From a virus (Duplodnaviria > Heunggongvirae > Uroviricota > Caudoviricetes), in the IMG/VR virus record IMGVR_UViG_2737471848_000025: a DNA stretch of 4,135 nt; one strand, given 5' to 3'. Shown one piece after another: positions 2,849-4,135 of this stretch (its first letter is position 1; each line of letters begins with the position of its first letter). Below the pieces are notes generated by a model, which did no database searches, was not told where the DNA came from, and was given only the letters and a program-made list of their open reading frames with translations. The position numbers and the translations under genes were made by a program.

Positions 2849-4135
2849 ATGAGTAACGCATCATACCCGACAGGCGTTGAAAACCATGGAGGATCACTCC
2901 GTATATGGTTTCACTATAATGGCAAACGTGTCAGAGAAAACCTCGGTGTTCCTGACACAGCCAAAAACCGGAAGATCGCTGGTGAACTTCGCACTTCCGT
3001 TTGTTTTGCAATCAGAATGGGGAGTTTCGACTACGCCGCGCAGTTCCCTAATTCCCCTAACCTGAAACACTTTGGTCTGGGAAAAAGAGAGATAACCGTT
3101 AAGGCACTTTCGGAAAAATGGTTGGACCTTAAGAAAATTGAGATTTGTGCGAATGCACTTAACCGTTACCAGTCAGTAATTAAAAACATGTTACCAATGT
3201 TAGGTGAAAAAAAACTGGTTTCATCCATAACAAAAGAGGATTTACTTTTCGTAAGGAGAGATTTGTTGACCGGTTACCAAAAGCTTTCTAATGGAAAGAC
3301 TTCTTCCATAAAAGGGCGCTCAGTGGTCACGGTAAACTACTATATGACAACCATAGCTGGAATGTTTCAATTTGCAACAGATAATGGTTATACCTCAGGA
3401 AACCCATTTAACGGTCTGGCTCCCTTAAAAAAGTCCAAGGTAAAACCAGATCCTCTCACCCGTGACGAATTTATTCGTTTTATTGAGGCTTGCCGTCATC
3501 AACAAACAAAAAACCTGTGGATTCTCGCTGTATACACGGGTATTCGTCACGGGGAGTTGGTATCGCTGGCATGGGAAGATATAGACCTTAAAGCAAGGAC
3601 TATAACCATCCGTAGAAATTATACAAAACTTGGCGAATTCACTCCACCAAAAACCGATGCAGGCACCGGAAGGACAATTCATCTGGTTCAACCAGCTATT
3701 GATGCTCTTAAAAGCCAGGCGGAAATGACCATGCTTGGAAAGCAACATTCTGTAGAGGTGAAGCAGAGGGAATATGGGAGAACTGCTGTGCATAAATGCA
3801 CTTTTGTTTTTAGTCCTCAGGTAACAAAACAGCAGCAGTTGTCCGGACCTCACTACAAGGTTGACTCCATCAGGGAGTCATGGACAAGTATCTTAAAACG
3901 CGCAGGTCTGAGACACAGAAAATCGTACCAATCCAGGCATACTTATGCATGCTGGTCACTTGCCGCAGGAGCTAATCCTAGTTTTATCGCAAGCCAGATG
4001 GGCCACACAAACGCACAAATGGTATTCAATGTTTACGGAGCATGGATGAAAGACAACAATCACGAACAGATAGAACTCCTTAACAAAAGACTATCTGAAA
4101 GTGTCCCATGTATGCCCCATAAGAAAGCAGGGTAA
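2849..4135 (+). CDS. int: Phage integrase, tyrosine site-specific recombinase (428 aa, complete; stop at window end)
   Basis: Box I-like AVYTGIRHGEL (Arg codon 3545-3547). Box II-like SRHTYACW...GHTNAQMVFNVYGAW, with the candidate nucleophile Tyr at codon 4034-4036. The N-terminal ~60 aa (GVENHGGSLRIWFHYNGKRVRE) resembles arm-binding domains of lambdoid integrases. GGGAGG at 2839-2844 is upstream of the ATG. Confidence 0.95.
   Translation: MSNASYPTGVENHGGSLRIWFHYNGKRVRENLGVPDTAKNRKIAGELRTSVCFAIRMGSFDYAAQFPNSPNLKHFGLGKREITVKALSEKWLDLKKIEICANALNRYQSVIKNMLPMLGEKKLVSSITKEDLLFVRRDLLTGYQKLSNGKTSSIKGRSVVTVNYYMTTIAGMFQFATDNGYTSGNPFNGLAPLKKSKVKPDPLTRDEFIRFIEACRHQQTKNLWILAVYTGIRHGELVSLAWEDIDLKARTITIRRNYTKLGEFTPPKTDAGTGRTIHLVQPAIDALKSQAEMTMLGKQHSVEVKQREYGRTAVHKCTFVFSPQVTKQQQLSGPHYKVDSIRESWTSILKRAGLRHRKSYQSRHTYACWSLAAGANPSFIASQMGHTNAQMVFNVYGAWMKDNNHEQIELLNKRLSESVPCMPHKKAG

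Follow-up and report, generated by a model that had tools for sequence, protein, structure and literature searches.

The curli regulator gene mlrA (yehV) is an established integration site of Stx phages, and insertion there is already known to split MlrA and to reduce biofilm formation in O157:H7, some isolates of which lose both curli and biofilm when the site is occupied (PMC8065619). The yehV-specific integrases include those of VT1-Sakai (prophage Sp15), of CP-933V-type prophages, and of YYZ-2008, phi330, and BP-4795. Circular Sp15 forms spontaneously, and mitomycin C raises its level about 40-fold; a marked Sp15, however, failed to re-integrate at yehV in K-12 and was transferred by way of Sp5 chimeras (PMC2669165). 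Because of this last result, integration by the integrase described here is supported indirectly, by its occurrence at mlrA in many genomes. Related systems with other targets have also been described. Phages Stx1_14040 and Stx2_14040 use yecE, or a site derived from yecE within another prophage, as their integration target (PMC8112680), and the Rac prophage, in which intR is adjacent, excises in a XisR-dependent manner, intR itself having been outside the tests of that study (PMC4632033).

The window analyzed here, that is, the whole stretch of 4,135 nucleotides, is the early-left end of a lambdoid prophage, and all of its genuine genes are on the + strand. The chromosome of E. coli OkiPb01684, a bovine isolate, matched the entire window at 100% identity, and the prophage in that chromosome is 62,313 bp long with int at one end. 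The gene content of the window, in order, was as follows:

before 425, + strand: DUF5405 fragment, then DUF2737 (from gene order)
425-883 and 870-1544, + strand: two Ead/Ea22-like genes
1541-2074, + strand: DUF551 gene
2162-2404, + strand: DUF4222 gene
between the DUF4222 gene and xis, + strand: 44-aa ORF
2561-2815, + strand: xis, the excisionase and directionality factor of the int module (PF06806, 101 bits; annotated xisR)
2849-4135, + strand: int, a 428-aa heterobivalent tyrosine integrase (ORF, Pfam, RefSeq WP_000063648.1, and identity to BAB19626.1)

An Rfam scan of the window gave no matches, and a scan for promoters and terminators around xis-int-att gave nothing exceeding the shuffled expectation. 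The nearest relatives of the window at the DNA level were YYZ-2008, phi330, BP-4795, and JLK-2012, with breakpoints in similarity to the relatives at approximately 1017/1057, 2025, and 2495. Over positions 2029-4400 of a query extended past the end of the window, DNA identity to VT1-Sakai (Sp15) was 99.7%, whereas positions 1-1016 had no match there. The host prophage is a different mosaic from VT1-Sakai, and no stx was annotated in it. IS elements were numerous, the portal gene was frameshifted, and the tape-measure gene was interrupted by an internal stop. The prophage is defective, and int may therefore no longer be under selection in OkiPb01684.

The integrase showed no such difference from VT1-Sakai. 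There were 0 mismatches to the VT1-Sakai/Sp15 Int (BAB19626.1) in 428 aa, and the xis gene, att core, 38-nt spacing, and target were all the same as well. The cluster of proteins at 90% identity that contains this Int had 1,563 member sequences. In other words, this is the already known integrase of Stx1-type mlrA (yehV) prophages, and its sequence features are real but ordinary. The ORF is very probably a functional lambdoid integrase of the IntR/Sp15 type, targeting mlrA and encoded by a recombinant gene, in which a Tyr at the His II position is normal for the subfamily. The traits of the IntR/Sp15 type that were present were the PF12167 domain, a Y-x-x-R-H-T box II, and an adjacent upstream excisionase of the PF06806/XisR type. 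The features within and at the end of int were as follows:

2867-3058, + strand: arm-type DNA-binding domain, aa 7-70 (PF12167 Arm-DNA-bind_2, 85.7 bits against a cut-off of 22)
3059-3450, + strand: linker and core-binding (SAM-like) domain (PF14659, a weak match, aa 83-131)
approximately 3145, + strand: mosaic junction at aa 99/100 (DNA comparison with yecE-type integrase genes)
3455-4036, + strand: catalytic domain, aa 203-396 (PF00589 Phage_integrase, 66 bits against a gathering score of 27.1)
3545-3547, + strand: Arg I, R233 (CGT), in box I (alignments)
3554-3556, + strand: Glu I, E236 (alignments)
3650-3652, + strand: beta-hairpin Lys, K268, in P-K-T (alignments)
3926-3928, + strand: Tyr360 (TAC), at the box II His II position (sequence and profile alignments)
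3935-3937, + strand: Arg II, R363 (AGG) (alignments)
4004-4006, + strand: His III, H386 (CAC) (alignments)
4034-4036, + strand: nucleophile Tyr, Y396 (TAC) (alignments)
4101-4109 and 4112-4120, + strand: two tandem RTGYCCCAT repeats (GTGTCCCAT, ATGCCCCAT), candidate P'-arm Int sites (motif)

Since the threshold of the PF00589 family profile was passed, Int is a member of this tyrosine recombinase family, and searches with an Int profile matched Tn1549 Int, XerA, XerD, and IntI4. The nucleophile Tyr, Arg I, Arg II, and the beta-hairpin Lys are common to the type IB topoisomerases and are more than 99% conserved. The corresponding residues of Int (Y396, R233, R363, and K268) matched the catalytic residues of XerD and Cre in alignments. 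An earlier reading of this DNA, made from the sequence only, had reported the box II Arg, the second His, and the nucleophile Tyr to be present; these aligned as R363, H386, and Y396, and R233, E236, and K268 were intact as well.

The att core, CCTGTCACGTTACGCGCGTG, is 20 bp long and was located 38 nt after the int stop codon, 39-58 nt beyond the end of the window, where it would occupy positions 4174-4193 in window numbering. It is the same as the 20-bp attachment site annotated in the VT1-Sakai record. A second copy was found at a distance of 62.3 kb, where it immediately follows the 5' 66 nt of mlrA (ATGGCGCTTTACACAATTGGTGAAGTG...), and the int-proximal copy was followed by the remaining 3' part of mlrA. 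The presence of the core at both prophage ends, with the two parts of mlrA outside, indicates that the prophage splits mlrA (yehV) near codons 17-23. The sequence-only reading had placed the att site and the integration target immediately past position 4135, and extension of the sequence beyond that point located both there, with the core repeated at the far prophage end. It had also suggested a tRNA or tmRNA gene as a frequent kind of target, but the target here is protein-coding.

Comparison with better known integrases showed a similar arrangement in several of them. Rac IntR was similar to this Int in domain architecture, in its match to the family profile (E = 8e-127), in having Tyr at the His II position, and in the GC content of its gene (43.0%), and the Rac module likewise has an xisR-type excisionase next to its integrase and is inserted at the 5' end of a protein-coding gene. 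However, Rac IntR is a more distant homolog of 411 aa and its target is ttcA. Lambda Int has the same three domains, xis upstream, attP directly downstream, and an AT-rich gene (45.0% GC), but it has His308 at the His II position, an arm domain from another Pfam family, and an intergenic attB between gal and bio, and its similarity to this Int was confined to the N-terminal and core-binding regions (profile positions 51-233, E = 4e-14). XerD, XerA, and Tn1549 Int belong to the same catalytic-domain fold family, and their R, E, K, R, H, and Y residues aligned with those of Int; unlike Int, they have His at the His II position, and the Xer proteins do not have an arm-binding domain.

The canonical box II histidine is absent from Int. 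The codon at 3926-3928 is TAC, encoding Tyr360, in the context R-H-R-K-S-Y360-Q-S-R363-H364-T-Y. With phmmer, Y-Q-S-R-H-T of Int was opposite H-A-M-R-H-T of Tn1549 Int, and with MAFFT, Tyr360 was opposite H244 of XerD (P-H-V-L-R-H-A) and H289 of Cre. An HMM of the family, built from 105 sequences, placed the family consensus p-y-q-t-R-H-T-y-A opposite H-x-x-R-H of XerD, and a 74-sequence profile compared with the PDB placed Tyr360 opposite the His II of XerD (1a0p), XerA, and Tn1549 Int. Neither MAFFT, phmmer, the family HMM, nor the PDB profile placed a histidine at the Tyr360 position. The assignment of this Tyr to the position of the first box II histidine, which had been made by eye, was thus upheld by four independent alignments, which covered XerD, XerA, Tn1549 Int, and Cre, as was the mapping of the catalytic residues.

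Lambda Int was difficult to align in this region. A four-sequence MAFFT alignment misaligned both lambda Int and Cre in the C-terminal part, a 108-sequence MAFFT alignment still shifted lambda Int by one column at box II, and family-profile searches aligned lambda Int no further than box I, so the equivalence of Tyr360 to lambda H308 was derived by anchoring on Arg II and reading across from the columns of XerD and Cre rather than from a direct lambda alignment. An AlphaFold2 model of Int, made with 26 close homologs aligned, had a mean pLDDT of 47 and a pTM of 0.30 and was too poor to place Tyr360 or to serve in a fold search. The placement of this residue in the active site is therefore based on sequence alignment.

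The His II column was examined in 104 homologs, which were the full-length sequences among the best 150 matches from a search of 1.84 billion representatives at 50% identity; these representatives were used to obtain the residue frequencies of the family because the homologs listed in a protein search were all at least 69% identical to Int. Tyr was found in 81 of the 104, N in 9, K in 4, H in 3, G in 3, R in 2, and other residues in 2. Y360 was invariant in 26 homologs with 69-85% identity to Int. The family consensus at box II was YQTRHTYA, and the corresponding sequence in Rac IntR of K-12 is YHTRHT. Gibb et al. 2010 (PMC2943603) examined approximately 12,000 tyrosine recombinases and found no active-site residue to be less conserved than His II (87%), with Tyr at this position in about 7%. 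In Cre, Flp, and lambda Int this histidine has a role in catalysis, and Cre with any substitution at H289 other than D, E, K, R, or W recombines in vivo (PMC2943603). Since Cre can do without His II, and since a portion of the family naturally has Tyr there (PMC2943603), Tyr360 is no bar to family membership. The sequence-only reading had regarded YQSR-HT as a departure from the usual motif, a view that does not hold within this subfamily, where Tyr appears from the sequence comparisons to be the ancestral norm at His II and no defect.

The earlier description of int as AT-rich relative to the upstream genes was correct. The GC content of int was 43.3%, compared with 49.5% for positions 1-2848 and 50.8% for positions 425-2848 (chi-square p=2e-4). 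It was 38.7% in positions 3100-3500, and the reported A8 run is present at 3207-3214, inside the linker and core-binding region. The two Ea22 ORFs had GC contents of 51.4% and 51.9%, with 300-nt segments of up to 56.3%. Within int, the GC content was 48.6% for the arm-binding domain (2849-3058), 38.0% for 3059-3450, the most AT-rich part, and 44.7% for the catalytic part; that of xis was 47.1%, and the first 428 nt of the window were also GC-poor, at approximately 42%. GC3 was 0.41 in int versus 0.49-0.62 in the genes from Ea22 to xis, the codon-level difference between int aa 100-428 and the upstream genes was significant (Fisher p=0.005), and rare codons made up 11.8% of int aa 100-428 versus 7.2% of the upstream genes. 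The single maximum-likelihood GC change point fell after approximately position 2723, which is inside xis and not at the start of int (LLR 11.0, compared with a maximum of 8.0 in 300 shuffles).

In the 62.3-kb prophage, int-sized segments had a mean GC content of 51.3% (sd 5.3%), which put int in the lowest 7%, and positions 3100-3500 were in the lowest 2.5% of segments of equal size. The difference found by windowed GC and codon usage was therefore significant (by chi-square, GC3, and change point) but moderate in size, and the composition of int is distinct from that of the rest of the prophage, though not extreme. Among the genes chosen for comparison, GC content was 45.0% for lambda int, 43.0% for Rac intR, and 53.1% for the chromosomal xerD. 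Lambdoid int genes are AT-rich in general, and since lambda int and Rac intR are about as AT-rich as this one, the trait indicates a long-standing property of this class of genes rather than recent import.

Comparison with the yecE-type phages Stx1_14040 and Stx2_14040, in which the int genes are annotated as intR, located a mosaic junction inside int. The window was approximately 100% identical to these phages from position 2025 (or 2495) through position 3144, and the first 296 nt of int contained only 1-3 mismatches. From position 3145 onward, DNA identity fell abruptly to approximately 73-78%, with about 270 mismatches over some 980 nt, and similarity stopped at position 4121. At the protein level, aa 1-99 were 100% identical and aa 100-428 were 78% identical, the DNA encoding the latter being about 73-75% identical. 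When attP regions of the mlrA type and the yecE type were reconstructed and compared, similarity resumed past the core and the P arms were approximately 90-93% identical, whereas the spacer and core differed (CCTGTCACGTTACGCGCGTG versus a CCGTCACATTAACTGCGTG-like core). The diverged block thus extends from int codon 100 to the core, a distance of approximately 1.05 kb, and has conserved sequence at both borders, namely xis with the arm-binding domain at one and the P arm at the other. The yecE-type integrases also share box II YQSRHT with this Int, and their target is yecE or a derivative of it.

The sharpness of this junction at the DNA level points to recombination rather than differential selection. 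The int gene is a recombinant, in that aa 1-99, together with xis, are common to yecE-targeting phages, while aa 100-428, the spacer, and the core are site-specific, and this pattern fits the established division of labor in heterobivalent integrases. The GC content of the diverged int segment was 42.2% in the mlrA-type allele and 43.6-43.9% in the yecE-type allele, and positions 3059-3144, although within the segment common to the yecE-type phages, already had a GC content of 38%. Because the GC shift is not exactly at the junction and both alleles are AT-rich, composition alone is no evidence of the mosaic event. The suggestion in the sequence-only reading that AT-richness reflected a mosaic origin of the integration module was not supported in that form: mosaicism is real, with a junction near 3145 inside int, but xis and the arm domain are not AT-rich and lambda int and Rac intR have equally low GC.

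Other explanations for these features can be weighed against this evidence. If the Tyr assignment were an artefact of alignment, a different histidine, such as H356 or H364, would be the real His II; both are close by in RHRKSYQSRHT, and MAFFT did put lambda Int one column off at this point. This is extremely unlikely, however, because R363 is anchored and the position at -3 from it is Y360 in all alignments with XerD, XerA, Tn1549 Int, and Cre. H364 is the counterpart of the conserved His that follows Arg II (RHT or RHA in Tn1549 Int and XerD), and H356, four residues N-terminal of Y360, was opposite a gap in Tn1549 Int and never at -3. The change from His to Tyr might instead mark a catalytically impaired or decaying integrase, as the IS elements, frameshifted portal gene, and interrupted tape-measure gene of this defective prophage and the contribution of His II to catalysis in Cre, Flp, and lambda Int (PMC2943603) could suggest. 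We consider this very improbable, since most members of the subfamily have Tyr at this position (81/104), as do all of the close homologs compared, and since the intact ORF encodes the same protein as the int of Sp15, a prophage that excises upon induction. Moreover, this int is also found, at 96-99% DNA identity, in BP-4795, phi330, and YYZ-2008, which were deposited as phage genomes, and the five substitutions at H289 that leave Cre inactive do not include Tyr. The support for function in Tyr-bearing members is indirect yet consistent, coming from Sp15 circularization and Rac excision.

The significant GC shift and the lower GC3 of int might also be explained if the whole int-xis-att module had recently been imported from a low-GC donor, with a mosaic boundary at the start of int. 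Lambdoid genomes are mosaic, and the window itself has breakpoints at approximately 1017/1057, 2025, and 2495. Such an import is nevertheless unlikely, because neither xis (47.1% GC) nor the arm-binding domain (48.6% GC) is AT-rich, and because the change point near 2723 is inside xis and the demonstrable recombination junction near 3145 is inside int. In addition, the mlrA-type and yecE-type segments are both AT-rich, and lambda int and Rac intR match them.

By analogy with lambda Int, the N-terminal domain of Int (aa 7-70) would bind arm-type sites in attP, for which the RTGYCCCAT repeats are candidates, and the core-binding and catalytic domains (aa 100-428) would bind the core site in mlrA (yehV). 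Tyr396 would attack the scissile phosphate to form a 3'-phosphotyrosyl intermediate, aided by R233, E236, K268, R363, and H386, and Tyr360 may fill the His II pocket, where it would probably donate a hydrogen bond, as the histidine does, to the phosphate or to the nucleophile. Recombination across the 20-bp core would split mlrA, and Xis (2561-2815) would steer excision.

The pattern of conserved, diverged, and again conserved sequence around the specificity block was observed directly, while its origin by exchange of a cassette, and the recurrence of such exchange, are suggested by the comparison of sequences. There is about an even chance that the stretch of approximately 1.05 kb from codon 100 to the core is an exchangeable "target-specificity cassette", in which a single pair of crossovers between co-resident prophages would retarget a phage from mlrA to yecE or from yecE to mlrA. 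If so, retargeting would keep the Xis, arm-domain, and arm-site architecture. The only item here that is mildly new is the exact junction at codon 99/100, with conserved arm-site architecture around the diverged specificity block. It provides a natural example in which the arm-binding module goes with Xis and the arm sites and the catalytic module goes with the core, and this pattern could aid in predicting integration sites from int sequences. With regard to annotation, a Tyr at the first box II position in the PF12167/IntR group should not be called a defect, and a low GC content in int is by itself no evidence of recent foreign origin. The importance of these results beyond correct annotation is small.

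The RTGYCCCAT repeats are plausible candidates, on the basis of their sequence and position, for P' and P arm sites recognized by the common N-terminal domain. Only two copies were found in the window, compared with 0.15 expected by chance, and both were within the last codons of int, in an 11-nt register. This pair (4101-4120) stands 54-73 nt before the att core, and its position at the 3' end of int is like that of the P' sites of lambda, which overlap the end of int. Identical pairs at identical positions were found in the yecE-type phages. At the other end of the prophage there were four copies with the same phasing, approximately 115-155 nt from the core. Beyond these six att-proximal copies, one more was found in the prophage and one in the flanking host DNA.

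Xis and the first 99 amino acids of the integrase were near-identical in Stx phages that target yecE (comparison loci L010 and L011), and identity to these phages dropped abruptly at window position 3145, between int codons 99 and 100. From 3145 to 4121 identity was only ~73-78%, and similarity to the same phages was absent in the spacer and the att core. The sharp break at 3145 points to a recombination junction inside int.

The first kilobase of the window (1-1016), which encodes DUF5405, DUF2737 and the first Ea22-like gene, had relatives that differed from those of 1017-4135, a difference that marks a further mosaic boundary near 1017/1057. 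The Ea22-like open reading frame at 425-883 is labelled in RefSeq as a truncated pseudogene with its C-terminus missing. GC content was also low, ~42%, in 1-428.

Tandem repeats of the motif RTGYCCCAT, phased at 11 nt, flank the att core on both sides, with two copies next to the end of int and four beyond the core, and the repeats are kept in the yecE-type phages. By their motif, these repeats are candidate arm-type Int-binding sites:

Candidate arm-type sites (RTGYCCCAT)
Window 4101-4109 and 4112-4120: tandem pair, int side of the att core
L005 (locus with the far-side prophage end) 2365-2406, minus strand: cluster, far side of the att core
L010 3759-3778: repeats in a yecE-type phage
L013 1274-1293: repeats in a yecE-type phage

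The int-side pair overlaps the last codons of int. Just after int, 21 nt past the window end and still in phage DNA, is the start of a seemingly intact RefSeq 'mlrA' CDS (10156-10857 of L002, the locus with the int-side prophage end), in which a phage-derived, in-frame ...LIPVTLRAWQ substitutes for the native ...DINPVTLRAWQ. The genuine first 66 nt of mlrA (L005 2522-2587) and the promoter are 62 kb away. The intact-looking CDS is probably an annotation artefact of the split gene.

The 62.3-kb prophage at mlrA in OkiPb01684 (L002 1-6000, L003 and L005 1-2540) was heavily degraded. An IS100 element adjoins the window immediately upstream, and the prophage contains four copies of IS3, one IS1 and one IS4. 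Its portal gene is frameshifted, and an internal stop interrupts its tape-measure gene. The annotation of the 62.3 kb shows no stx gene; sodC is present, as is an espS effector gene in a decayed state.

In the integrase family, nine of the 104 representatives lacked Arg in the R233 (Arg I) column (eight Ser, one Ile), with the nucleophile Tyr, Arg II and His III all retained. These nine may be inactive or non-canonical, or the alignment may be locally wrong at this column. A 142-aa open reading frame on the minus strand (3425-3853), wholly within and antisense to the region encoding the integrase catalytic domain, is most likely a chance ORF.
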